Positions 10,698 to 41,244 of a DNA stretch of 64,000 bases are shown piece by piece (positions within the stretch are counted from its first letter, which is position 1; every line of letters starts with the position of its first letter). Position numbers and translations under genes: made by a program. Below the pieces are notes generated by a model. The model did no database searches. It was not told where the DNA came from and worked only from the letters and a program-made list of their open reading frames with translations. This DNA is from Candidatus Bathyarchaeia archaeon (GTDB taxonomy: Archaea; Thermoproteota; Bathyarchaeia; Bathyarchaeales; Bathycorpusculaceae): positions 224,001 through 288,000 of the forward strand of contig JBEKOM010000001.1 of assembly GCA_049521795.1 (NCBI GenBank), in the 5' to 3' direction.

Positions 10698-11141
10698 GAA
10701 TCATTATCCTGCCTTGGCCATACTTCTTTCTGCTTTGCTATAGAGATGAAGAAGGACTATATGTTTCTTTTCCATGATTATGTAGCTACTGAAAGTTGCT
10801 CTGTCTTTCATCTGCCACCACGCCCGCAACGTCTTCCAAGAACGCGAGCGAACTCATAAACGAAGCATAAGACCAGTGAGGCTCTTCTGCGTTAGAGGGT
10901 GGGATTTGAATCTGCAACCAGGCGGTGAAAACTGGCAACTCCTACTTTTTCTATTTTACTTTAGCGTATTTCAAACTATCAGACCTTAATCACGATGAGC
11001 AAAGCTGGGGAAAACGAAGGTCTGCGAAGCATGGCGGTTTCAAAAATATAGGGTCTTCAGAAGGGGTGTGCTTGCAAAGAGACTTCAAAGTTTCGGAAAA
11101 AAGAGCTTATTTGGGAATGCTGTCCTTAGTTCTTCAGTGAG

Positions 11142-11606
11142 ATGCTGAGATTGACGTTCAGAATAGTGAGATATAGAACTGAATATCGGGATGTCGTCGT
11201 GGGGCTGTGGCGAACATGTAACCTAGTCGTTCCCCAGAATGACCCGGTGGAAGACATAGAGAAGAAGATGCATTTCCAACCGAATCTTTTCCTTATAGGC
11301 CTGTTGGATGGGAAGGTGATAGGTTCAATCATGGTTGGTTACGATGGTCACAGAGGTTGGATAAACTATCTTGCTATCACTCCTGAAGATCAGAGATACG
11401 GCTACGGCAGAAAACTGGTTCAAAAAGCCATAGATGAGCTAAAGAAGATGGGTTGCCAGAAGGTAAACCTGCAGATTCGCAGAAGCAATGACAAGGTGAT
11501 CGACTTCTACAAACATATTGGTTTCAAAGAAGATGATGTAGTCAGTCTAGGCATGAGACTCGCTGCAAGGCAACGTACACTTCGTGGCGGGCGGGGTGGG
11601 ATTTGA
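11142..11606 (+). CDS. GNAT acetyltransferase (YpeA-like)
   Basis: MVGYDGHRGWINYLA, QRYGYG and FYKHIGF motifs; the last 22 nt overlap the tRNA 3' end on the other strand. Confidence 0.9.
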   Translation: MLRLTFRIVRYRTEYRDVVVGLWRTCNLVVPQNDPVEDIEKKMHFQPNLFLIGLLDGKVIGSIMVGYDGHRGWINYLAITPEDQRYGYGRKLVQKAIDELKKMGCQKVNLQIRRSNDKVIDFYKHIGFKEDDVVSLGMRLAARQRTLRGGRGGI

Positions 11607-11630
11607 ACCCACGACCACCAACTTAGGAGG

Positions 11631-11644
11631 CTGGTGCTCTATCC
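11631..11644 (+). repeat. Left att core CTGGTGCTCTATCC
   Basis: Identical to 18129-18142. A second 26-bp identity block links 11694-11719 with 18137-18162. Confidence 0.88.
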
Positions 11645-11697
11645 AGACCAAGCCACAATTCAGGGAGCACCCCCCACAAGAATAATGACCCAGCTAT
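11643..11697 (-). other. tRNA intron with bulge-helix-bulge motif (about position 19/20)
   Basis: Central helix GGAC/GUCU with two GGA bulges. Cutting GG^A in each bulge regenerates exactly the intronless D-arm found at 18129-18160. Confidence 0.8.
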
Positions 11698-12640
11698 CCG
11701 TCCTGAGCTACCCGCCCAATACATACAGCAACTACCAAGTATAGAAAAGCTTCTAAGACACCTCGAAGGAAAAGGCCGAAGCCCAAACACAGTAACAGCC
11801 TACACTAAAAACCTCAAAGCCTTAGCACTACGAGCAAACCTACAAGACCCCGAAGCAGTAGAAATAGAAATAGCACGCTACAAAAAGAAAAACGAAAGAC
11901 CCGCAACCAACAACTACAAATCCAAACTATGCGACTGCTACAATACCTACTGCAAATTCTACAAAATCCAATGGGAAAAAGCAATCTACACACCCGAACC
12001 CACAACCATACAACCACCATCCAACGAAAAGATACTAATGTTCGTCGCATCCGCCAAAGGCACACTAAGCCTAAAAATTGACATCAGCAACCAAACAGGA
12101 CTCAGACCCATAGAGGTTCAGGGCGAAAAAGGACTACACGCAAAGGACATTCACCCAGACCAAAAAACAATAACAGCCCGAATAACCAAAGGATGCAACG
12201 CAAGACCACCACTTCCAATATCGCCCGAACTTACCGCAAGACTCCAAACATACATAACAAAAAACAACTTACAACCCGACGACCTACTGTTCAAAGGAAG
12301 CGAACGACGGTACGGCGAACACTTCAGAACCTTCAGAAACAGACTAGCCAAAAAACTAAACGACCCAACAATCAAAACAATCCGACTCTACGACCTAAGA
12401 CACGCCTACGCCACAAGACAACTCCGAAGAACACAAAACGCCGAAACCGTCAGAATAATAATGGGCCACAAAAGACTAGATACAACACAAAAATACCTGC
12501 ACCTACTCGGACTAGACAACGGCGAATGGATAGTTGAAGGAACAACAGACAAAAAACGAGCACAAGAACTACTAACCGCAGACTTCACTTACCAACTGAC
12601 AACACCAGACGGAACAATGCTCTTCAAAAAACCGAAATAA
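11645..12640 (+). CDS. int: Tyrosine integrase, C-terminal part Int(C) of a split gene
   Basis: Frame is open from 11627 with no ATG until 12038. Includes a SAM-like segment (GRSPNTVTAYTKNL) and catalytic TGLRPIE, K, YDLRH and MGH...TTQKY. Confidence 0.9.
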   Translation, partial: RPSHNSGSTPHKNNDPAIRPELPAQYIQQLPSIEKLLRHLEGKGRSPNTVTAYTKNLKALALRANLQDPEAVEIEIARYKKKNERPATNNYKSKLCDCYNTYCKFYKIQWEKAIYTPEPTTIQPPSNEKILMFVASAKGTLSLKIDISNQTGLRPIEVQGEKGLHAKDIHPDQKTITARITKGCNARPPLPISPELTARLQTYITKNNLQPDDLLFKGSERRYGEHFRTFRNRLAKKLNDPTIKTIRLYDLRHAYATRQLRRTQNAETVRIIMGHKRLDTTQKYLHLLGLDNGEWIVEGTTDKKRAQELLTADFTYQLTTPDGTMLFKKPK

Positions 12641-12791
12641 AAACAACCTTCTTTTTCTCCTTTCAGTATCATGCTTAACCATTATGTCGCGCTCGCATCA
12701 CGCTCGCGCTCCAACTTACAAGAACTCAAAACAACAATAAGCAGAAAAGGCAGAGCAGTTAAGCGCGTGCGAACTAATCATTAAATACTGA

Positions 12792-13223
12792 ATGCAACAT
12801 ACTGCTCTTGGTGATTCCACGGAAGAACTGAAGAAGAAGTTTATAGTTGAAGAGAAACTGGATGAAAAACGGGTTACCAATTACGTCGAAAGAATTCTTC
12901 CCTTCTGCAAGATATCGAAAGATGGTATGGTAATAGCTGAAGCCAAAGATTTGAAATCACTGCAGAAAGTCAAGCTGGCTTTGGTAGCGAGATATCTAGC
13001 AAACTATCTCGACAAAAACATACCTGCTGAAGTCACTAACGAGGAATTAAGCACTTCTCTAATTATCCCAGAAGACCAGATTGCGGCAAGAATAGCCGAA
13101 CTAAGAGAAGACAAATTCGCAATTCCTGTGAAAAGAGGTTCGCATCAAGCAAACCCTCTGCAAATTGAAGAATTCATAGCAGAGTTAGAGAACACACACC
13201 AAAAGAAAGCGGAGAAACCTTAG
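12792..13223 (+). CDS. Hypothetical protein, possible winged-helix C-terminus
   Basis: 143-aa ORF whose stop overlaps the next start (TAGTG); EELSTSL...QIAARIAELRE resembles a wHTH. Confidence 0.7.
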   Translation: MQHTALGDSTEELKKKFIVEEKLDEKRVTNYVERILPFCKISKDGMVIAEAKDLKSLQKVKLALVARYLANYLDKNIPAEVTNEELSTSLIIPEDQIAARIAELREDKFAIPVKRGSHQANPLQIEEFIAELENTHQKKAEKP

Positions 13224-14014
13224 TGAATCTGAACGACTACTTTCCTAAAGATGAAGTCGAAGATGCCAAATACATAATTCATGAATTTCATGATAAACTG
13301 CTTCTTGATGACAAACCGAGCGACAAAACTGCATTGCTACTGTCACTCTACATGTGCTCTAACAAGAACAAGCAATCCGAGATTACGTACGGCGAAGTTA
13401 GGAAGCTATTCGTTACGCTTGGCAGAAAGGAAGACAATTTCGCAGTGAATCTGTTCAATGCAAAGAGAGAGGAGCTTGTGGATGAAAGACAAGAAGGGCG
13501 AGCAAAATTACTCAGCTTGAAAGTCAAGGGATTAAAAGAAGTAAAGGACACGTTAGGAGAAACGATTGGAGTCAAAACATGGCTGATTGAATCTGGTAAG
13601 GTTTATAGTGGAAAGAAACTTTTCCAAGAGATAGTAATGTCGAAGATTGGTTCTGCAGCCAAAATCTGTGACCCATATTGCGGAACTAGAATTCTCGAGT
13701 TGATAAGTGGAATTGAACACAAGTGCGCAATCTTTCTTTTGACACAAGCAATCGAACAAAAGGAATCCTTCAAAAGGGAGTTGATAGATTTCTCAAAGGA
13801 ATTTCAGCACTTGAAAATTGAGGTTAGAATTTTCAATGGAAAGACGTTGCATGACAGATACATAATATCGGATGGCAATTGCTGGTCTGTTGGTTCAAGT
13901 CTGAAGGATTTTGGGAATAAAGACACCACATTAACGAAACTGGAAGACGAAGTAAGATATGCCGTAGAAGAAATGTTCGACAAGAGATGGCAAGAAGCCA
14001 CTCCGTTTCCATAA
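13223..14014 (+). CDS. wHTH-like N-terminus plus PLD-like nuclease domain
   Basis: ICDPY strand and HDRYIISD-x6-GSS, an HxR variant of the HxKxxxxD-x6-GS motif. Confidence 0.72.
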   Translation: MNLNDYFPKDEVEDAKYIIHEFHDKLLLDDKPSDKTALLLSLYMCSNKNKQSEITYGEVRKLFVTLGRKEDNFAVNLFNAKREELVDERQEGRAKLLSLKVKGLKEVKDTLGETIGVKTWLIESGKVYSGKKLFQEIVMSKIGSAAKICDPYCGTRILELISGIEHKCAIFLLTQAIEQKESFKRELIDFSKEFQHLKIEVRIFNGKTLHDRYIISDGNCWSVGSSLKDFGNKDTTLTKLEDEVRYAVEEMFDKRWQEATPFP

Positions 14015-14184
14015 ATCGCGCGCGCATAGCAGGAACATAATAGGCATTCGTTACACTTCTATCGTCTTTTCTGTTTTGTGCATTCTGTAAATAGAAAGGC
14101 GCGCTAGGCACAATTCAATGTTAACTATTAGAGAAGCAATCTGGCAGTGCAGTCTTTTTAACCAAGCTGGCTTTATTCTTTGTT

Positions 14185-15120
14185 ATGCTGTCAACGACTC
14201 ATTGTCTGCTCACTGGTGGAAGATGTGCTCATTTACCTATCTCTGTTGAATTGAACAGTTTCTTCGTATCCGAGCCTTACGATGAAGAAAGGCAACAAAG
14301 GGAACTCGCAATCAAGAAAGCACTAGAAGGTTTTAACTACATAATATCGGACCACAAAATCATGAATATTGCTCTCACATGCAAGATATGCCGTCAAATT
14401 CAATCATCAGAATTTGGAATCGTAGACATATCTGGATGTAATCCGAACGTCCTGATTGAATTAGGTATGCTGTACGGTTTCAGCAAACCGACAATTATAT
14501 TACTTAAGAAAAGCGAGCACCCTGAGTTTGACGTTCCATCGAACATTAAGGGAATCGAGCAAATTCGATACGAGGATTTTGACGAAATCACTGGAAAAAT
14601 AAAGAAAACCGTGAGCGTGTTTTTTGAGCTTCGGGCCAAAATGGATGAATACATAATTGACATGAGACCCATGCTTCAGCATCTCATACGGAGGCTTGAA
14701 ATTGAAATTGAAACGAGAAAATTGGTCGAAACTGGACTCAAATCTCAGATTATTGATTTCAAGACTCTTGGAAATGTTGGGGTTGTTATACTTGACAAAG
14801 GAACAAGAAATGGTGTCAAAACAGGCATGATTTTTGAGGTCTACCGCTCTGATAGAATCTCTATGGGAGACTATCTAGAAGAGAATGTTGGTCTAATCAT
14901 AGTGACATTTGCTCAAGAAAGAATTGCACAGTGTCAACCATTACAGATTGACCCAGACCTGCAGTTCTGGAAAGATGTTTCTTCAAACACTTTTGCCAAA
15001 AATGTCGTTAAGCCATACCCGAGTAAGACGTACAAAGATATTTCGATAGAGCAAGCAAAGACTATCCTAAGCAAAGCAGAAATATTGCACGAATACATGT
15101 ACTCTGGTAGGGTATGTTGA
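14185..15120 (+). CDS. Nucleoside 2-deoxyribosyltransferase/TIR-like domain fused to a FlgT_C-like beta domain
   Basis: FVSEPY...IVDISGCNPNVLIELG...KPTIIL at the N-terminus; VILDKGTRNGVKTGMIFEVY at the C-terminus. Confidence 0.7.
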   Translation: MLSTTHCLLTGGRCAHLPISVELNSFFVSEPYDEERQQRELAIKKALEGFNYIISDHKIMNIALTCKICRQIQSSEFGIVDISGCNPNVLIELGMLYGFSKPTIILLKKSEHPEFDVPSNIKGIEQIRYEDFDEITGKIKKTVSVFFELRAKMDEYIIDMRPMLQHLIRRLEIEIETRKLVETGLKSQIIDFKTLGNVGVVILDKGTRNGVKTGMIFEVYRSDRISMGDYLEENVGLIIVTFAQERIAQCQPLQIDPDLQFWKDVSSNTFAKNVVKPYPSKTYKDISIEQAKTILSKAEILHEYMYSGRVC

Positions 15121-15509
15121 TGTCAGCTATGCTGAAGGGCAAAATTCTGAAAATCTTGAGTAGTTACAGCGTTGTCATCAGTCTTGGCAAGGAGCAAGGC
15201 GTTACAAAGGATATGAAATTCATTATTTATGAGGAAGGGGATATGATAAAGGATCCCGAAACTGGAGCAGATATTGAGAAATTGGAAATTCTGAAAGGAG
15301 AAGTGACTGTCACTCAGGTCCAAGAAAAAATCAGCGTTGCAGAAAGCTTTGCGATCGAAAAGAGAGTATACAATCCTCTTGATGTGGTGTACGCATACAC
15401 ATCTAGAACTGTCATAACAAAAGAGAAGAAACCGCTAACTGACGAAGCCATTGAAGCTCCTGCTCCTTCTAAAGTGAAAATCGGAGACCTTGTCAGGCAA
15501 ATTTCGTGA
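15114..15509 (+). CDS. Stand-alone FlgT_C-like beta-barrel protein
   Basis: VVISLGKEQGVTKDMKFIIY...DPETG...VTQVQEKISVA...KIGDLV; overlaps the upstream stop. Confidence 0.68.
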   Translation: MLMSAMLKGKILKILSSYSVVISLGKEQGVTKDMKFIIYEEGDMIKDPETGADIEKLEILKGEVTVTQVQEKISVAESFAIEKRVYNPLDVVYAYTSRTVITKEKKPLTDEAIEAPAPSKVKIGDLVRQIS

Positions 15510-15746
15510 TATCCTCACAACACGATGTTGAACAGGGTGCTCGAGCCAAGTCGTGCGCAACACCAATAACCATACTCTAAAAAGCCTCCAAAATCAGCCA
15601 GCCATCAACAAAAGACCAACGTCTCTTACGATAACCAGACAACTTAACCAAACGCTTCAAGGGAACAGACTCAATACGGCAACCCTGAGCACGAACAGAA
15701 ACAAACAGACGCACCTTGCCCAAAAGCACAGCCTTCATAGCTACCG

Positions 15747-16724
15747 CTATTCGACTCGACGGATTACAGCGTCAGGATAGTTAGGTTGACCGAGCTCATC
15801 AAACTCATAGTCAACAAACCAAGGAACATAGTCAGGGTGACCGACATCCTTAACGATGTGACGCTTACCAACGTAAGCGCACGTACCCATTTCTTCACCG
15901 CAAGCAGGACAGACATCTTCGGACTCCAACCGCACACCCTTAAACTTACGATAACTCATCGAACCAAACCACGTGACAACGTGAAAACGCCCGACACCGA
16001 CCCGAATCGTCGCATGGTTCAACTGATACCAAGCCGTACCGAGAAGGGTCTTGCGTTTATCGTGAACCTTAACGAGAATGCCATCCTTTTCACCGCATCT
16101 ATAATTACGGTCAACAAAGCCACCGCAACCCTTGAAACAAGCCCTCTTGCAAGCACGGCACTTCTCTCGGCCAGCGACAGAAGCGAGAGTGTGATAGTGA
16201 GGACTCCAAACCAAACGCTGAAGGATTCTGTTAATGCGGAATCCGTGAAAAATCATGCAACCGCCGACAACGCCCCTGTCCAGCAAAGCCTTTCTAGCCT
16301 TCACTCGCAACGCGACCTCAGGCAAATGCCTATCAGCCTCAGGAAAAGACACCGTGACGTGCTCGGCAACACCTAGACCACGCCTCTCAGCCTCAATCAA
16401 ACGGCCCTCAATACTACGAGCCTCACGGAGAGCCCAACCGCGAATAAAGCAGACAGGACAGCTACTCTTATGACACCACAGATGCTTATGACGAACAACT
16501 ACCTTATCCGTACAATCTACCCCGCCAACGAAAACGCCTTTATGCCCTTCGACGTTCTTACAAACCTTGTAAGCAACCCAACGACCGCAAAAATCGCAAG
16601 TTTTAGCACCCCTGCCAACAGGCTGATAATTCTCATGCCCAACGTTGTCAACGGGCAGACACCAATACTTATTCTTCAAAATAGCCCTATTCAAACGCAG
16701 ACGCTCAGAAAAGGAACGGTTCAC
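15747..16724 (-). CDS. rep: Rolling-circle replication initiator (HUH endonuclease) with Zn-binding motifs
   Basis: Motif I EHVTVS, motif II SPHYHTL, motif III WYQLNH; several CxxC pairs including C-terminal CPACG. Confidence 0.82.
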   Translation of the reverse strand: MNRSFSERLRLNRAILKNKYWCLPVDNVGHENYQPVGRGAKTCDFCGRWVAYKVCKNVEGHKGVFVGGVDCTDKVVVRHKHLWCHKSSCPVCFIRGWALREARSIEGRLIEAERRGLGVAEHVTVSFPEADRHLPEVALRVKARKALLDRGVVGGCMIFHGFRINRILQRLVWSPHYHTLASVAGREKCRACKRACFKGCGGFVDRNYRCGEKDGILVKVHDKRKTLLGTAWYQLNHATIRVGVGRFHVVTWFGSMSYRKFKGVRLESEDVCPACGEEMGTCAYVGKRHIVKDVGHPDYVPWFVDYEFDELGQPNYPDAVIRRVE

Positions 16725-16748
16725 AGCCTCAACCGATACCAGCCAAAA

Positions 16749-16967
16749 TCACCTCAACTCTCCATTCAAATAACGATCAGGATGCTTCTCTACCCACTCC
16801 ACAAATCTCGCATCCTCTTCATCCTCCTCATCCATCTCACGCTCAAATCTCCTATAATGAGGACATTTGAAACACCTAGCCATGATTCCAAACTTTGCGT
16901 CTTTACGATACGAACAGAGAACGTCAGGCAAAAACGCGCAGGATAACAACGTTTCAGATGAAGCCAT
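16749..16967 (-). CDS. Small Cys-rich protein with acidic tail
   Basis: 72 aa, C-x7-C and CFKC motifs; immediately upstream of rep and co-oriented. Confidence 0.65.
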   Translation of the reverse strand: MASSETLLSCAFLPDVLCSYRKDAKFGIMARCFKCPHYRRFEREMDEEDEEDARFVEWVEKHPDRYLNGELR

Positions 16968-17050
16968 TCCTTACATCCCTCTCTAAATCATTCCCTAATC
17001 AACGAATGAGATATATAGATATTCAAGGGTATACTCATAATTGAGGGACA

Positions 17051-17788
17051 ATGGTGAATCCTAACAATTCCAGCTACAAACAGTACAACCAACAACTGAT
17101 TCTAATGGCTCTTTTAGACGGTCAATGGCACCGAAACATGGAACTCAAAGAGAAAACCAAATTGACCGCTCGCACATTATCCAAGCATTTAGATGAATTG
17201 GAAGAAGAACTTCACTGGATAGAAAAGAAAAAAGATACTGAAAGCGGAAAATACCCATATCCCGTTCTCTACAAAGCCAACCCGACAACCATAAAACACA
17301 CAAAATTCGTCATGTCAATCCACGAATATGCGGACAACATAGAAACAACGTTAAAGGAAACAAAAGACCCCTTCCTAATGTTAGATAATTTTCACATGCT
17401 CAACCAACTAACCTTCACACTAATCTTGATGGCAGTTCAAAGTAACAAATACATGACTTGGAAACAAATAGATTATGCGACAAGCTTCTTTCTTTTTTCA
17501 CCTTACGAAATCTATACTCAAAACCTAGTTACAGCAATCACCAAAGCCATACAATCAGGCGCACGATTTGACGTCAAACAACTATTAGTATCTCAAGCGA
17601 AACGACGAAGAGTAATTCCCGAAGAGATTATCAAACCCTACGACGAACTGGGAATACTAACGCCGTATCCGACAAAGCACGTTACGGCAAAGCGTGACCT
17701 AATAACGCAAGACAAAAATCAAACTTACACACGCACTGGGAAGTCTCCTCGAAGGCATAAGCCTTTCCCTCATTTAAAAAAGAGGTAA
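17051..17788 (+). CDS. Winged-HTH transcriptional regulator (element repressor candidate)
   Basis: ILMALLDG...ELKEKTKLTARTLSKHLDELE...VLY; divergent from the rep operon. Confidence 0.75.
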   Translation: MVNPNNSSYKQYNQQLILMALLDGQWHRNMELKEKTKLTARTLSKHLDELEEELHWIEKKKDTESGKYPYPVLYKANPTTIKHTKFVMSIHEYADNIETTLKETKDPFLMLDNFHMLNQLTFTLILMAVQSNKYMTWKQIDYATSFFLFSPYEIYTQNLVTAITKAIQSGARFDVKQLLVSQAKRRRVIPEEIIKPYDELGILTPYPTKHVTAKRDLITQDKNQTYTRTGKSPRRHKPFPHLKKR

Positions 17789-17870
17789 AGTTAGAAATCA
17801 TCCCGTCATGGAAGCCACACAACTTGAAAACAAAAGTGACTCGCTAGGCTTCCAATGACTAGAATCTTTT

Positions 17871-18041
17871 ATGAAAGGCATATTGCCTTCTCGTCGCGTC
17901 AACGAAAAAACAATGAAGGTCTGTGAAATGAGAATCGGAGATGTGAAAATGAGAACCCTTAATAGAACCCCAGAAGAAGTACGAGTCGCCCAGCTATGGG
18001 CAGAAATGGAACTATCAAAACTTTTGAAGGTGAAAGAATGA
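17871..18041 (+). CDS. Small ORF (up to 56 aa) coupled to Int(N)
   Basis: Manual translation ends ...MRTLNRTPEEVRVAQLWAEMELSKLLKVKE*; its TGA overlaps the Int(N) ATG (ATGA). May start at 17949. Confidence 0.45.
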   Translation: MKGILPSRRVNEKTMKVCEMRIGDVKMRTLNRTPEEVRVAQLWAEMELSKLLKVKE

Positions 18042-18178
18042 CTACAGAAGAGACTGAAACACAGGGTAAAGCCACAAATCCAATGGACAATCAAGCAGAA
18101 AACAAAGAAGCTTTACTAAGGATAAAGTCTGGTGCTCTATCCGTCCTGAGCTACCCGCCCAACATTTCATTAGGCTGA
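18038..18178 (+). CDS. int: Integrase N-terminal fragment Int(N)
   Basis: AGGTGA RBS then MTTEETETQGKATNPMDNQAENKEALLRIKSGALS; reads the att core in the same frame (GGT GCT CTA TCC) as Int(C). Confidence 0.78.
   Translation: MTTEETETQGKATNPMDNQAENKEALLRIKSGALSVLSYPPNISLG
18129..18160 (-). repeat. Right att site: intronless 5' fragment of tRNA-Arg(CCT)
   Basis: Reverse complement GGGCGGGTAGCTCAGGACGGATAGAGCACCAG is the tRNA 5' end up to the anticodon stem, without the intron. Confidence 0.9.
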
Positions 18179-18264
18179 GACTAGTTTGATGCGGTGTAGA
18201 TTTTAACCTAGTGCCAGCCTCTGCAAAAAAGTTTAACTGCACACAAATATCAACCTTTATCGCT

Positions 18265-18375
18265 GCGGGGGTACCCGAGCCAGGTCTAAATAGGCGGGCC
18301 AGAAGCCTAAGACAAGGGGGAGGACTTAAGATCCTCTGGCGAAGGCCTCCGTGGGTTCGAATCCCACCCCCCGCA
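18265..18375 (+). tRNA. tRNA-Leu(TAA) with a 26-nt D-loop intron (18290-18315)
   Basis: GCGGGGG/CCCCCGC acceptor stem, GAGGA-CTTAAGA-TCCTC anticodon arm, long variable arm, GTGGGTTCGAATCCCAC T-arm. Intron helix GTCT/AGAC with AAA and AAG bulges and a TAGGC/GCCTA stem. Confidence 0.92.
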
Positions 18376-18425
18376 CCTTTTCATTACGCGCTGGAAGAAC
18401 CCACTTGTCACTTCGGAACAATCGG

Positions 18426-19994
18426 TTATGGGTAGTGTTGTAGGAAGTGGTTTGCGAGAATTATTGCGTCTAAGACGTTTACTATGTTGTCGCTGTTCAG
18501 GTCTGCGTTCGGGTTCCAAGCTGGATTGCGCGATGTTAGAAGGAAGGAGTCAGCTAATGTTGCGGCATCCAATTGGTTCACTGTTCCGTCGCCGTTGATG
18601 TCGCCTAGAATGCTTCTAAGATCGAAGGTCAAGGATGCTGAGACATTTTGTCCAAGATAGTTTGAGTTTACGTGCACAGTGTAGTTGCCTAATTCTGTTA
18701 GATCTGTGAGAACAAATGTGGAGTTGTATGTGCCCTGTGTGTCTGTGAAAGGAGCTGCAGTGACGACAGTGTCATTCTTGAGATTTTGAACTTCCATCGT
18801 CACTGACACTTGTGGCACGGGGGATCCGTAGTACGTCAGGTTTCCCTGTACGAGTATCTGCTCGCCTACGTGATAGATCGTCCTGTCCGTTCCTACTGTT
18901 ATTTGGAGCACTGTGATTTTGTAGAAGCCGTCGACCGAAGCAGTCTGGTTGACGGCATTGCCAAGCGTGTCCTCAATCCTTGTGTCGTAGAGGTGCAGTG
19001 GACAAGTCAAAGCGTTCGGAAACAATGCTTGCATCGTCGCGTTGAACTGGATTATTGCCACTGCTCCAGAGCCTTGTGGCCACGGGGGATGCAATGTTCC
19101 GTTTACATCGGGATTCACAACAATGCGAAGCTGAATGTAAGTGAGGTTAACGAGTTGCGTAAGCGATGTTCCCTGGTTTGGCGCAGCTCCGTATGAAGGC
19201 AACCACGGTCCCTCCCAAACGTTCAATACTTGCAGTATCGTACTGTTGTAGCCCAGCTTGAATTCGAAGCCTACGGCTTCCCAGCCAGGGTCTAGGCTGT
19301 TGACTTTGACGCTTATGTTGAAGACTTCACCGACGTTTGATGCAGTGTACGTTGGTGGGTCAACCGAGAAGAACGGGGTCATGACGGGCGGAGACCAGTT
19401 CAGCGTGTAGGTTCCGTTCAGGGTTGTAAGCGGAATTGATTTTGCGCTTATGTTACCCGCAATCGCTTCGCTGAGGCCCAAAGCGGATGACACACTGCCG
19501 CGAAAGGGGGGTGTCTTTCCAACTCTCATGGTCAACGTTGCCAGCGTAAGTTTTCCTTCAGGCGGAAAATTCGCTGTGGTTACATTAACTGGTGCGTATC
19601 CGTCACCAACTGACGCGAGGTTGTCCCTCCAAGTCTGCGCGTAGTCAGCGTAACCGCCAGTGTTGTTGAGTGCCAACTTTACGTTCCACAGGTTGCTCCA
19701 TTTAAAGACGGGCGTTACCGTGTGGAACAAGACTTCTTGTATGTCCTGGCAACTCAGCAATGTTGGATCCCATGTTAGGCGAAATTGGACACCGACGAAC
19801 CCTGTGATGTTGGCGATCGTAACATTGACCGTGAACGTGCTGCCAGAAACCATAGGCGGCGACAGCAACACGATGTCCGAGGGGTCCACAAACACCTTTG
19901 CCCCTTCCGCCGCACGAATTTGAAGCACGTTTGCGAAACTGAGAAGCGCGACCGCAACCATTAGCACTGAGAGAACTCTTACCATACTCTTCAT
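18426..19994 (-). CDS. Secreted protein with two cohesin-like domains, an Ig-like domain and a C-terminal dockerin
   Basis: Signal peptide; FTVNVTI...QFRLTWDPTLL and FNISVKV...EFKLGYNSTIL repeats; GDINGDGTVNQLD and ADLNSDNIVNVLD Ca-binding loops. Confidence 0.82.
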   Translation of the reverse strand: MKSMVRVLSVLMVAVALLSFANVLQIRAAEGAKVFVDPSDIVLLSPPMVSGSTFTVNVTIANITGFVGVQFRLTWDPTLLSCQDIQEVLFHTVTPVFKWSNLWNVKLALNNTGGYADYAQTWRDNLASVGDGYAPVNVTTANFPPEGKLTLATLTMRVGKTPPFRGSVSSALGLSEAIAGNISAKSIPLTTLNGTYTLNWSPPVMTPFFSVDPPTYTASNVGEVFNISVKVNSLDPGWEAVGFEFKLGYNSTILQVLNVWEGPWLPSYGAAPNQGTSLTQLVNLTYIQLRIVVNPDVNGTLHPPWPQGSGAVAIIQFNATMQALFPNALTCPLHLYDTRIEDTLGNAVNQTASVDGFYKITVLQITVGTDRTIYHVGEQILVQGNLTYYGSPVPQVSVTMEVQNLKNDTVVTAAPFTDTQGTYNSTFVLTDLTELGNYTVHVNSNYLGQNVSASLTFDLRSILGDINGDGTVNQLDAATLADSFLLTSRNPAWNPNADLNSDNIVNVLDAIILANHFLQHYP

Positions 19995-20213
19995 TCTGGC
20001 TCATCATATTCTTCTGTGCAACATAGCAAATATTGCTTTTGGATAAATCCTTCAAAGCTTTTCTTATCAGAGAAGAGATAAATTGCGGCAGAGATCACTC
20101 AGCCGAGTGGAATCCGGGTCCCATCGCCTTCACGCTGAAGAAATCAGCGGAAAGAAGCTTAAGAACGACCTCACTCGATAGTTAGGAAAAGCAAGAGAAG
20201 CACGGGTGTCACG

Positions 20214-40686: not shown

Positions 40687-41244
40687 ATGCCTAAAAAAAT
40701 AGGGGTAGAACTGATTGAAAACTTCCTAGTAGTTTGGAACCCCACAGACGGCTCAGAACTCTACAGAAAAGGGTTCTACGGCAAACCCCTCGGAATCGCC
40801 AAACCCAAAATCCCAGAATTCAACGTTCCACTTATTCTGGATCTGATGGAAGGCTTGTACCTGGTTGAAGAAGACATCATCACCGTTTACGAAGGCCCCA
40901 AAAAAATCAAAGTAGGCCCAAGGAAGCTCCGCCAAGTGGCCAAGCGACTGTACGAAGAGTTTGACGACAAGTACACTGTATACCGCGACCTAAGAGACAG
41001 CCAGTTGATCGTCACACCCGGCATAAAGTTCGGCTGCGACTTCGCCGTTTACAAACACGGCCCAGGAGTCGAACACGCCCCCTACATGGTCTCAGTCAAA
41101 AAAGCCAAATCCGAGATGACAGCCACCGAAATAGTCAAGGCCGGAAGACTCGCGACAACCGTCAGAAAAAGGTTCATAATAGCCGTTCCCAACTCGGAGA
41201 AAGCAAAGACAAGATACTTAATATTCAAATGGTTCAAAGCGTAA
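40687..41244 (+). CDS. endA: tRNA-splicing endonuclease, catalytic subunit
   Basis: VYRDLR...GIKFGCDFAVY...H...GRLATTVRK with the Tyr/His/Lys triad. Confidence 0.93.
   Translation: MPKKIGVELIENFLVVWNPTDGSELYRKGFYGKPLGIAKPKIPEFNVPLILDLMEGLYLVEEDIITVYEGPKKIKVGPRKLRQVAKRLYEEFDDKYTVYRDLRDSQLIVTPGIKFGCDFAVYKHGPGVEHAPYMVSVKKAKSEMTATEIVKAGRLATTVRKRFIIAVPNSEKAKTRYLIFKWFKA

Follow-up and report, generated by a model that had tools for sequence, protein, structure and literature searches.

What becomes of a transfer RNA (tRNA) gene when a mobile element integrates into its 5' half? This question is raised by a 64,000-nucleotide (nt) stretch of a Candidatus Bathyarchaeia archaeon genome (assembly GCA_049521795.1, contig JBEKOM010000001.1, positions 224,001 to 288,000; here called the window), in which an integrated element of 6,498 bp lies at 11645-18142 inside a tRNA-Arg(CCU) gene. 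A first-pass annotation, made from the sequence letters alone, had taken this region for a minimal integrative rolling-circle plasmid or virus satellite in a probable Bathyarchaeia host. Our analysis indicates that it is probably an integrative, plasmid-like element, presumably of the rolling-circle type, that regenerates the tRNA gene it interrupts with an intron-like insert added.

A tRNA gene interrupted by a 6,498-bp element

The sequence CTGGTGCTCTATCC was found by repeat search as an exact 14-nt core at 11631-11644 and 18129-18142, with a copy spacing of 6,498 bp, and it extends to a 17-nt repeat (11628-11644 and 18126-18142, 16/17 identical) whose single mismatch falls just outside the core (11630 versus 18128). 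The same search returned a second direct repeat, perfect over 26 nt (11694-11719 and 18137-18162). At the right end of the element the 17-nt and 26-nt repeats are contiguous with a 6-nt overlap and together make up an uninterrupted tRNA 5' half; at the left end 49 nt lie between the two repeat parts. Rfam matched a tRNA at 11595-11656 on the minus strand (40.7 bits); the CCA end of the gene is at 11585, and the anticodon loop CU-CCU-AA assigns it to Arg(CCU). ARAGORN called no tRNA on the whole window as it stands because the gene is interrupted. Joining both flanks in silico, as in an empty site, gave a 78-nt tRNA-Arg(cct) starting at 11585, and in-silico removal of the insert likewise restored the standard 78-nt tRNA-Arg(cct). 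A tRNA-Pro with an anticodon intron, reported by ARAGORN -i on the occupied junction, was disregarded as spurious. The features of both junctions are listed below, where G001, G002 and G010 denote relatives of the same genus.

11585-11640, minus strand: host-borne 3' exon of tRNA-Arg(CCU), from the D-stem 3' strand to the encoded CCA (Rfam, ARAGORN; 98% identical to the tRNA of G001 and G002)
11631-11644: attL core, 14-nt exact repeat and proposed crossover region (repeat search)
11641-11695, minus strand: intron-like D-loop insert of the regenerated tRNA, 55 nt by the splice-site reading (absent from G001 and G002; helix covariation)
11645-11695: element-borne spacer of 51 nt, also the linker of the integrase (Int) on the plus strand (in frame with int(N) and int(C))
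11645-12640, plus strand: int(C), catalytic part of a tyrosine recombinase, its frame open for 331 codons after the crossover (PF00589)
11696-11717, minus strand: element-borne tRNA 5' exon, comprising the acceptor 5' strand, the D-stem 5' strand and the D-loop up to GGAU (inside the perfect 26-nt repeat)
17996-18142, plus strand: int(N), 49 codons up to the crossover (tblastn in related elements)
18129-18142: attR core (repeat search)
18143-18160, minus strand: native 5' part of the tRNA, displaced by the element (93% identity with sequence upstream of the intact gene in G001, G002 and G010)
about 18161-18250: native upstream region after the displaced 5' part

Read on the tRNA strand, the left junction runs from the 5' exon (11717-11696) through the insert to the 3' exon (11640-11585), with the 5' exon and 51 nt of the insert being element DNA. 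The crossover core spans the D-stem 3' strand to the anticodon-stem 5' strand, and the acceptor 5' strand brought by the element pairs 7/7 with the acceptor 3' strand of the host. An A/T-rich box is located about 26 nt upstream of the element-borne 5' exon, within the codons for an invariant Ile33; it reads TTTTCTATAC, TTTTGAATAC or TTTTGTATAC in tRNA sense, and in a look at codon choice for this Ile its distance was found to vary in divergent members. The tRNA-derived direct repeats and their 6,498-bp spacing, as first annotated, are thus borne out by repeat search, Rfam and ARAGORN on the joined flanks. The statement that the element targets the tRNA 5' half was correct but incomplete, since the element also supplies a 5' half of its own beyond the intron-like spacer, and the earlier gene list stands apart from having missed the 26-nt repeat, the 49- to 51-nt left spacer and a 53-amino-acid (aa) gene at 15577-15738 on the minus strand.

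The empty site and the rejoined integrase gene

The window flanks were compared among 40 relatives. In G001 and G002, whose flanks are 88-94% identical to those of the window, sequence matching 18377-18126 abuts sequence matching 11644-11583 with a 17-nt overlap, and an intron-less tRNA sits behind the same upstream DNA as the window has from 18163 onward. This allele is the predicted attB. Because the element is absent from both genomes despite flanks of this similarity, its insertion is recent. The empty site that the first-pass annotation had proposed to look for in related genomes was therefore found in two congeners, and together with the in-frame rejoining of int it confirms that the region is an integrated element.

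The integrase gene is divided between the ends of the element, and both annotated halves are upheld by PF00589 and open frames. Int(C) matched PF00589 at E 7e-13 and a XerA-like model at 78.9 bits, below that model's cut-off, and a Pfam scan of Int at E<=1 listed only PF00589 and PF02899, with PF16795 (Phage_integr_3) not matched. When int(N) and int(C) were joined in silico at the 14-nt core, a continuous frame of 380 codons resulted; joining them in the 26-nt repeat instead shifted the frame and led to a stop after 9 codons. As the two halves join in frame only there, the crossover is placed in the 14-nt core. R154, K182, Y249, R252, H253, H275 and Y284 were invariant in an alignment of 22 Int sequences, and catalytic roles were assigned to R154, K182, R252, H253, H275 and Y284 on the assumption that they follow the R-K-H-R-H-Y pattern. 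Homologues that are unsplit across the junction (P0058 and P0029) run from the N-part through GALS and a spacer peptide into a SAM-like domain, while in other homologues the called gene extends from int(C) into the complement of the tRNA (GFEPTT...GGWCS), marking integrated copies. Matches to int(N) by tblastn (44-72% identity) occurred at the far end of 8 related elements. Judged by this arrangement, the integrase is of the SSV-type 'suicidal' kind, in which attP lies inside int and integration leaves int(N) at the right end and int(C) at the left end. It appears to work like a suicidal integrase, and its membership of the PF16795 clade is not supported.

The Int query yielded 724 homologous proteins, and 80 metagenome loci were fetched with the Int alignment; no relative was found in IMG/VR. 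In loci L100/L104 int is unsplit (400 aa), and its spacer is the one also found in L065, an integrated locus. L100 was rejected as an episome, since it holds two int genes in a tandem array, and tandem junctions were also seen in L050, L084 and L096. In L050, L084, L096 and L100/L104 a second core, spacer and 5' exon, without the tRNA 3' part, directly follow int(N), and the arrays yield hybrid, unsplit int genes.

An intron-like spacer within the integrase frame

Most of the 80 metagenome loci share one order of tRNA 3' part, core, spacer of 38-95 nt, 5' exon and int, the spacer-less loci being L073, L075 and L082. We found 72 core-spacer-5' exon sites with 55 distinct spacers (S), wrote them on the tRNA strand as 5' exon + S + 3' exon, and counted pairs between S[1+k] and S[-3-k]. 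From k=0 to k=6, standard pairs were present in 55, 54, 51, 49, 48, 44 and 44 of the 55 distinct spacers, with three to eight pair types per helix position, and sliding the 3' partner by 1-3 nt either way as a control lowered these counts to 6-42. G-U was found in 85 of 385 cells versus A-C in 5, indicating a helix on the tRNA strand only and not an inverted repeat of double-stranded DNA. The spacer is translated as an Int linker on one strand and forms a covarying helix on the tRNA strand.

The helix starts 1 nt past the 5' junction and ends 2 nt before a 2- to 3-bp helix formed with D-loop nucleotides, in which the first G of the 3' part is paired to the C of ACGG, and S[-1] (C in 39 cases, U in 16) to the G following this C, each in 55/55. 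The 5' junction lies in a 3-nt bulge consisting of AU plus one nucleotide (or GAU), and at the 3' junction a symmetric AUA is placed two nt after the short helix, so that a cut after the second bulge nucleotide at both junctions would give exactly GGAU joined to AGAGC. In hosts with GCAA or GCAG replacing GGAU before AGAGC only the paired G is kept, which fits these nucleotides being intron. The acceptor strand of the element forms 7/7 pairs with the host strand in 44 of 65 sites, and matched acceptor variants were seen as GGGCGAG/CTCGCCC (5 sites) and GGGCGTG/CACGYCC (2 sites). A canonical bulge-helix-bulge (BHB) register set by eye, with a 4-bp helix of G16-C19 with 71-74, was rejected as it shifts the inner helix by 4 nt against the covarying register.

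The source genome (G000) has two tRNA splicing endonuclease (EndA) genes of PF01974, one of which is located inside the window (about 40960-41202, plus strand, 99.4 bits) and the other at C5:55689-55943. According to passages of PMC4090602 on archaeal introns, relaxed motifs are tolerated by two-subunit endonucleases, and 20/21 and 22/23 are among the known intron positions. The spacer thus looks like a D-loop intron with a relaxed splice motif, at best a relaxed hBH-like form around position 20/21, and would be removed from the transcript by splicing.

One tRNA locus in three allelic states

G010 lacks the element but has, behind the native upstream region, a 37-nt insert at the same position between the 5' exon and the 3' exon. 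One tRNA locus therefore occurs among relatives in three allelic states: empty, element plus insert, and insert alone. A class census, in which the pattern of core, gap and 5' exon was searched in 401 genomes with the reversed pattern as a control, gave 20 sites in 19 genomes including G000, compared with 1 match for the reversed control. All matching genomes belong to one family (18 of its 103 other members, 0 of 297 genomes elsewhere). Among the 20 census sites a full-length frame from the spacer into int (331 codons) is found in the window only; the others reach 198 (L171), 162 (L159), 138 (L160) and 82 codons (L161), and the rest 53 or fewer.

Loci L154-L157 share a non-int upstream sequence, and the upstream sequence of L169 resembles the native upstream region of the window; no int match was found within the 1.5 kb examined at any of them. 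The inserts of these loci are homologous to element spacers and keep 6-7 of 7 helix pairs, and the 63-nt insert of L169 is about 90% identical to the spacer adjoining int in L088. Recombination between the two identical 26-nt copies in the window would delete 6,443 bp and produce such an insert-only allele. The flow could have run from element to host, or a host intron could have been captured by an element; in the source genus delivery by the element is favoured because G001 and G002 are intron-less.

Other DNA changes were observed at the same tRNA. In other genera tRNA-Arg(CCU) carries inserts elsewhere (L007 in G004, L013 in G017, L016 in G029, L020 in G030, L023 in G019; also L019, L024 and L025), one being about 29 nt long after about position 9 and preceded upstream by a partial GGGCGG copy, and others following the anticodon. 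Between the tRNA 3' end and a GNAT gene there is an extra 2.25 kb in G001 (L033, 15164-17414) and 1.2 kb in G002 (L034), with a 27-nt copy of the tRNA 3' end adjoining GNAT. The products of the additional open reading frames are a membrane protein, a response-regulator-like protein and a protein of 127 aa, an integrase not being among them, and this extra DNA looks like what an earlier event at the 3' half of this tRNA left behind.

A putative rolling-circle initiator and its family

Besides int, the element carries a backbone of genes around a candidate replication protein (Rep):

15577-15738, minus strand: conserved 53-aa basic protein directly downstream of Rep (tblastn)
15747-16724, minus strand: putative Rep, 325 aa, with an HUH-like nuclease domain after an N-terminal Cys cluster (alignment, model, structure searches)
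16749-16967, minus strand: 72-aa Cys protein (CxxC-PHY-RF), candidate zinc-ribbon partner of Rep (beside Rep in 9 loci)
17051-17788, plus strand: 245-aa protein with a weak N-terminal winged-helix match (eight HTH families, E 0.002-0.08, all below cut-offs)

Homologues of Rep form 698 representative clusters at E<=1e-3, and C55, C84, C89, H160, H176, H178, Y233, H237, C272 and C275 are invariant in 61 homologues. H176-x-H178 is found within SPH(F/Y)H-x-LG and Y233 within A-x-YQL-x-HA, and a C-terminal CxxC accompanies the N-terminal Cys cluster. A model built from the alignment (pLDDT 94.2, pTM 0.90; a single-sequence fold with pLDDT 30 was discarded) places the HUH on a strand (170-183) and Y233 on a helix (227-235). 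The top rows of a VIA-align comparison were SIRV1 ORF119 (Z 4.9, 107 aligned residues, rmsd 4.3) and Vientovirus Rep (4.8), followed by Helitron (4.3), RepB of pMV158 (4.3), AAV5 Rep (4.0) and MVM NS1 (4.0). Foldseek against BFVD gave 13 matches at E<=1e-3 and, beyond this cut, three named rows at E 1.8e-3 to 3.8e-3: a Microvirus replication initiator, an ORF2/G2P protein and a putative Rep. In the Atlas the nearest named clusters are Rep_1 (score 0.96, 193-198 shared features), some of which carry Zn_Tnp_IS91 or REP_ORF2-G2P. One of the 61 homologues matched PF01446 at E 0.021, short of the family threshold, and PHROGs on the 61 returned only single matches to families of unknown function. 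The annotated HUH Rep is supported, not proven, by the invariant HxH and Tyr, by the model and by the HUH Reps topping the structure lists, and we regard it as quite likely that this protein is an HUH rolling-circle initiator.

The small Cys protein noted beside Rep was recovered with a length of 72 aa. It lies in the Rep frame, one stop codon and 8 codons apart (16724-16967), is fused to Rep in P0123 and P0131, and occupies other frames in L116-L119 and L129; these arrangements indicate a regular Rep partner. In the window the pair could represent a two-gene operon, a read-through or a recent break. The 53-aa protein has tblastn matches in 28 related loci (44-88% identity), ends in ...RWSFEDGWLILEAF in relatives and belongs to no Pfam family. 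By contrast, the 245-aa protein was found in only 1 related locus; it is present as annotated, but its assignment as a winged helix-turn-helix (wHTH) regulator is left with a weak match below cut-offs. Rep is split into two or three tblastn pieces in Bathyarchaeia metagenome-assembled genomes (MAGs) at L136, L144, L146-L148, L150 and L152, suggesting that many integrated copies are decaying.

A Rep relative is located beside int in 22 of the 80 int-selected metagenome loci, and 26 of the 38 genome loci selected by Rep have an int relative no more than a few kb away; the scan for these loci used the single window protein, Rep alignments being too divergent. The two genes are on opposite strands in 37/37 loci holding both. 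Thirty-five of the 38 genome loci carry Bathyarchaeota or Bathyarchaeia titles, in agreement with the host first proposed; two are from a Thermoproteota single-cell genome and one from a Christensenellaceae MAG, a record that is probably a binning error. In composition, the int-sense strand is A- and C-rich (means: AT skew +0.46 and GC skew -0.22 for int, +0.21 and -0.34 for the Rep region), with the Rep region keeping the same skew although it is antisense, and host flanks are near zero. Across 11500-18300 of the window the backbone reaches an AT skew of up to +0.57 and a GC skew down to -0.45, the bias being weaker in the cargo. T-rich, C-poor strands are a property of single-stranded DNA (ssDNA) replicons, and a strand bias independent of gene direction fits a single-strand stage.

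Proposed mechanism and alternative explanations

We propose that integration in the 14-nt core would cut off the native 5' part of the tRNA together with its promoter, and that the element would compensate by supplying, antisense to int and 51 nt inward from its left end, a copy of the 5' exon, with the A/T-rich box as a candidate promoter. The regenerated gene would consist of the 5' exon, the 55-nt insert and the 3' exon, and a two-subunit splicing endonuclease would remove the insert via a relaxed BHB-like arrangement. Excision would restore a whole int and Rep would replicate the resulting circle, whereas recombination between the 26-nt 5'-exon copies would remove the element but retain the insert, which would then be an ordinary tRNA intron. 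Excision and replication are suggested by the intact frames, the identical repeats, the recent insertion and the tandem arrays. More generally, split integrases of Bathyarchaeia may use an intron-bearing half tRNA gene antisense in int, with elements installing an intron that 5'-exon recombination leaves in place, a generalisation for which we see the balance as even. If it is true, one strand of the same 40-95 nt would code for an Int linker and the opposite strand for a spliceable D-loop intron, providing a concrete and repeatable route for the gain of non-canonical tRNA introns.

Several observations weigh against this account and are considered here together with the alternatives they bear on. 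If the host tRNA already had a D-loop intron, an element of 6,443 bp with a spacer-less attP could have crossed over in the 26-nt repeat, which is perfect and longer than the 14-nt core. Intron alleles behind native promoters in the family (G010, L154-L157, L169) and the spacer-less elements L073, L075 and L082 would fit such a history, as would the identity of the native and element-borne 5'-exon copies, including a D-loop G that is T in G001, G002 and G010; this shared G is not predicted by a crossover in the core. However, int rejoined in this way shifts frame and runs into a stop after 9 codons, and the other frame lacks a start codon. In addition, neither of the two nearest relatives has an intron, the peptide encoded by the spacer is similar to its counterparts in int homologues, and the same spacer is present in split (L065) and unsplit int (L100/L104), and we rank a pre-existing host intron as the least probable of the alternatives. 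The spacer helix might also be an ssDNA hairpin (a single- or double-strand origin) or an Int-binding feature, with the interrupted tRNA being inactive and dispensable. Loss of tRNA-Arg(CCU) may be tolerated if a UCU isoacceptor reads AGG, the strand on which G-T pairing occurs is the Rep-sense, T+G-rich strand, which by composition would be the displaced one, and many spacers end in a CTTGAT-like word, which we take to be the nick-site word of Rep_1 plasmids. Nor is a canonical BHB, with two 3-nt bulges and a 4-bp helix, formed: a single clean 3-nt bulge is present, the central helix is made up of 2-3 bp and an A-G mismatch (50/55), and the next G of the loop (G19) pairs with S[-2] in only 30/55, A being at S[-2] in 24 cases, in 19 of which S[0] is U and extends the inner helix instead. 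Moreover, the 3' splice site is placed in a 3x3 internal loop beside the D-stem, facing three unpaired D-loop nucleotides, and acceptor pairing is imperfect at 6/7 in 19/65 sites and 5/7 in 2/65. What a hairpin or a binding feature leaves unexplained is that the helix register is fixed to both exon junctions (by 1 nt and 2 nt) in 55/55 spacers, that 6-7 of 7 pairs are kept in inserts behind native promoters with no int or Rep nearby, that the acceptor strand of the element covaries with the host strand, and that GCAA and GCAG hosts keep the paired G alone, as expected of an intron. This explanation hence appears unlikely to us.

A further alternative is that the element is a fixed, immobile remnant without excision or replication, its genes kept for defence cargo or decaying. 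Ten runs were listed in a search of DNA runs, three with at least half of the element's sampled words, and the four best, all peat metagenomes, were compared by their contigs only. In the likely source run (X1) the depth of the element matches that of its flanks (23.9 versus 27 and 25.6), as for a single copy, and no contig of the four runs joins 18142 back to 11645, although contigs cannot exclude a circle; on these contigs the check for a 6,498-bp circle suggested in the first-pass annotation gave no circular junction, and the element may be either a plasmid or a virus satellite. A contig of run X2 that skips exactly 6,498 bp (depth 2.4, 31-nt side) represents an uninterrupted tRNA, which could come from any relative, and was not counted as excision. 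Terminal overlap of circular contigs was seen in 0/80 metagenome and 0/38 genome loci, and the unsplit int copies sit in tandem arrays and are not proven episomes. A split int cannot make full-length Int, as stated in the part of review PMC8371274 that deals with such integrases, and most related census copies have broken int frames, so that many family copies appear decayed, with several Rep copies of MAGs in pieces. In the window, by contrast, every backbone frame is open, the rejoined int spans 380 codons, the 26-nt repeats are identical and the insertion is recent by comparison with G001 and G002, and tandem arrays show repeated integration in the family; an immobile remnant is therefore the alternative we take most seriously while still finding it doubtful. 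The 325-aa protein, finally, could be an HUH transposase or relaxase, or another zinc-binding nuclease with an RRM-like fold, rather than a Rep. All of its PDB structure matches are below Z 5, where ribosomal protein S6 and polymerase palm domains, unrelated RRM-like folds, score alike. It matches no family in Pfam, PHROGs, NCBIfam or PADLOC, and the proposed check by HUH profile thus turned out negative in that no curated family profile was reached. The protein and its profile gave nothing meaningful against PDB sequences, Foldseek against the PDB nothing at E<=1e-3, and tblastn against phage and plasmid collections no match. Matches at E 0.04 to the IS91 zinc-domain family were seen for three of the 61 homologues, IS200/IS608 transposases are in the Foldseek list at E about 0.14, and archaeal Reps have earlier been misassigned to HUH, according to text in PMC13107129. 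Against these points, the protein pairs with an integrase in tRNA-bounded elements (26/38 genome and 22/80 int loci) and not with insertion-sequence ends, its named BFVD and Atlas neighbours are replication initiators, and PF25227 (Rep-Arvir) is not matched. The observed order of HUH then Tyr is that of a Rep and not of a relaxase, and a function other than replication initiation has a low probability in our view.

Relation to known systems

A locus with three states makes the mobile-element model for the origin of non-canonical archaeal tRNA introns testable. As far as the text of Sugahara 2012 (PLoS One 7:e32504, PMC3293823) goes, this model, the only one of its kind, rests on one locus, the tRNA-Thr(GGU) of Caldiarchaeum subterraneum, where an intron-bearing attP was proposed to recombine with an intron-less attB, a proposal that is repeated in a section of PMC8371274. 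According to the same account in PMC3293823, that element too is integrated in the tRNA 5' half with the native 5' fragment left upstream and the gene regenerated with an extra intron (at 24/25), and heterogeneous alleles coexist in close relatives, as here. It differs in being a single 1.9-kb insertion of pNOB8-type layout with att outside the recombinase gene, whereas in the window the putative intron is inside a split int frame of a Rep-bearing replicon, and 55 distinct covarying spacers and several intron-only alleles homologous to element spacers are available. The window element would thus extend this single-case model, with dozens of sequence-diverse spacers preserving the junction helix. 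What appears new is that attP includes a 5' exon together with an intron-like spacer, both within int, and that intron-only alleles throughout a Bathyarchaeia family share this feature. For Asgard tRNA genes, parts of a preprint (10.64898/2026.10.13.758758, 2026) describe tests of mobile elements, copying and reverse transcription, and report no general route.

Like SSV1, pTN3 and pT26-2 as portrayed in sections of PMC8371274, the element has attP inside int, a tRNA target, int(N) and int(C) after integration, and the catalytic residues in int(C). The known SSV-type integrases carry PF16795 and come from hyperthermophiles in that account, and SSV1 duplicates the tRNA 3' half (also stated in PMC3293823). 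Unlike these, the window Int has PF00589, is XerA-like and known from peat metagenomes, targets a 5' half and has an attP interrupted by a spacer; 'suicidal' integrases are thereby extended beyond hyperthermophiles and beyond PF16795. The insert resembles the non-canonical archaeal introns (hBH/HBh') set out in passages of PMC4090602 in its D-loop position, its length within 11-129 nt and its basal helix beside a 3-nt bulge, but differs in that the second splice site is not in a clean bulge and in being protein-coding on the opposite strand.

With Rep_1 (PF01446, of the pUB110/pC194 type) and the initiators of ssDNA phages, Rep shares the HUH, the catalytic Tyr on a helix and an RRM-like core (both predicted here) and the lack of a helicase; the N-terminal Cys cluster, the C-terminal CxxC and the separate or fused zinc-ribbon partner set it apart from Rep_1. 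Its family is confined to Bathyarchaeia by the record titles seen and would add, with 698 clusters, an HUH-like Rep family outside the curated ones. Rep-Arvir (PF25227; Wang et al. 2026, NAR, PMC13107129) is likewise an archaeal rolling-circle initiator recognised by structure in integrative elements, whose excision restores an int-containing operon; in the parts of that paper on its fold, Rep-Arvir combines a TBP-like fold with a wHTH and is related to Rep_trans, unlike the RRM-like fold with HUH predicted here. In the portion consulted of PMC10848311, on viruses of Bathyarchaeia, integrases are touched on briefly and a rolling-circle protein is not mentioned. A non-exhaustive literature search that did not cover supplements recovered no publication dealing with this int or Rep family, nor one describing an int gene that contains an intron. 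Bathyarchaeia, with few described plasmids, would gain a candidate small replicon with defence-like cargo.

Cargo, conserved non-coding block and neighbouring features

The remainder of the element consists of two cargo pairs, which agree with those first annotated, and a non-coding block:

12662-12737: conserved non-coding block with a mirror repeat (sequence comparison)
12792-13223, plus strand: cargo 1a, 143 aa, no family (profile libraries)
13223-14014, plus strand: cargo 1b, 263 aa, PLD-like, PADLOC candidate system PDC-S05 (PDLC04869 E 6.8e-19; weak PLDc_2/MIT_C)
14185-15120, plus strand: cargo 2a, 311 aa, TIR-like N-terminal part (PF10137 24.8 bits versus a cut-off of 24.7; PADLOC TIR effector E 3.5e-7)
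15114-15509, plus strand: cargo 2b, 131 aa, FlgT_C-like, borderline (PF16538 26.8 bits versus a cut-off of 27; phrog_27728 E 7.7e-8)

The cargo looks like defence genes (PDC-S05/PLD-like and TIR-like) by these profile matches, and it differs between related elements, in which int, Rep and both small genes are retained. Searches of the window proteins with Pfam, PHROGs, NCBIfam and PADLOC gave no family for capsid, packaging or conjugation functions, as the first-pass annotation had stated. The non-coding block of about 70 nt contains the mirror repeat CGCGCTCGC, 4 nt, CGCTCGCGC. Across 24 related loci, identity over this block or over its 30- to 60-nt core amounts to 89-100%, compared with 70-80% for backbone coding parts, and the block occurs in up to 3 copies per locus (3 in L050; 2 each in L100, L072 and L059/L060), usually just past the int stop and sometimes again between cargo units. 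It could be a candidate cargo promoter, a cassette recombination site or an origin.

Outside the element, the stretch at 18262-18378 on the plus strand resembles a second tRNA gene of the long-arm type, with the anticodon-loop word CTTAAGA and an apparent D-arm insert, and a lone T-arm-like stretch is found near 10900 (10893-10920); neither was called by ARAGORN or by Rfam at the gathering score. In G022 a different insert is present at the same place of this second tRNA-like gene. Adjoining the att site, a 522-aa secreted-looking protein is encoded at 18426-19994 on the minus strand and has no counterpart in G001, G002 or G010, in which about 1.8 kb is missing between window positions 20174 and 18377, representing a second indel beside the tRNA pair.

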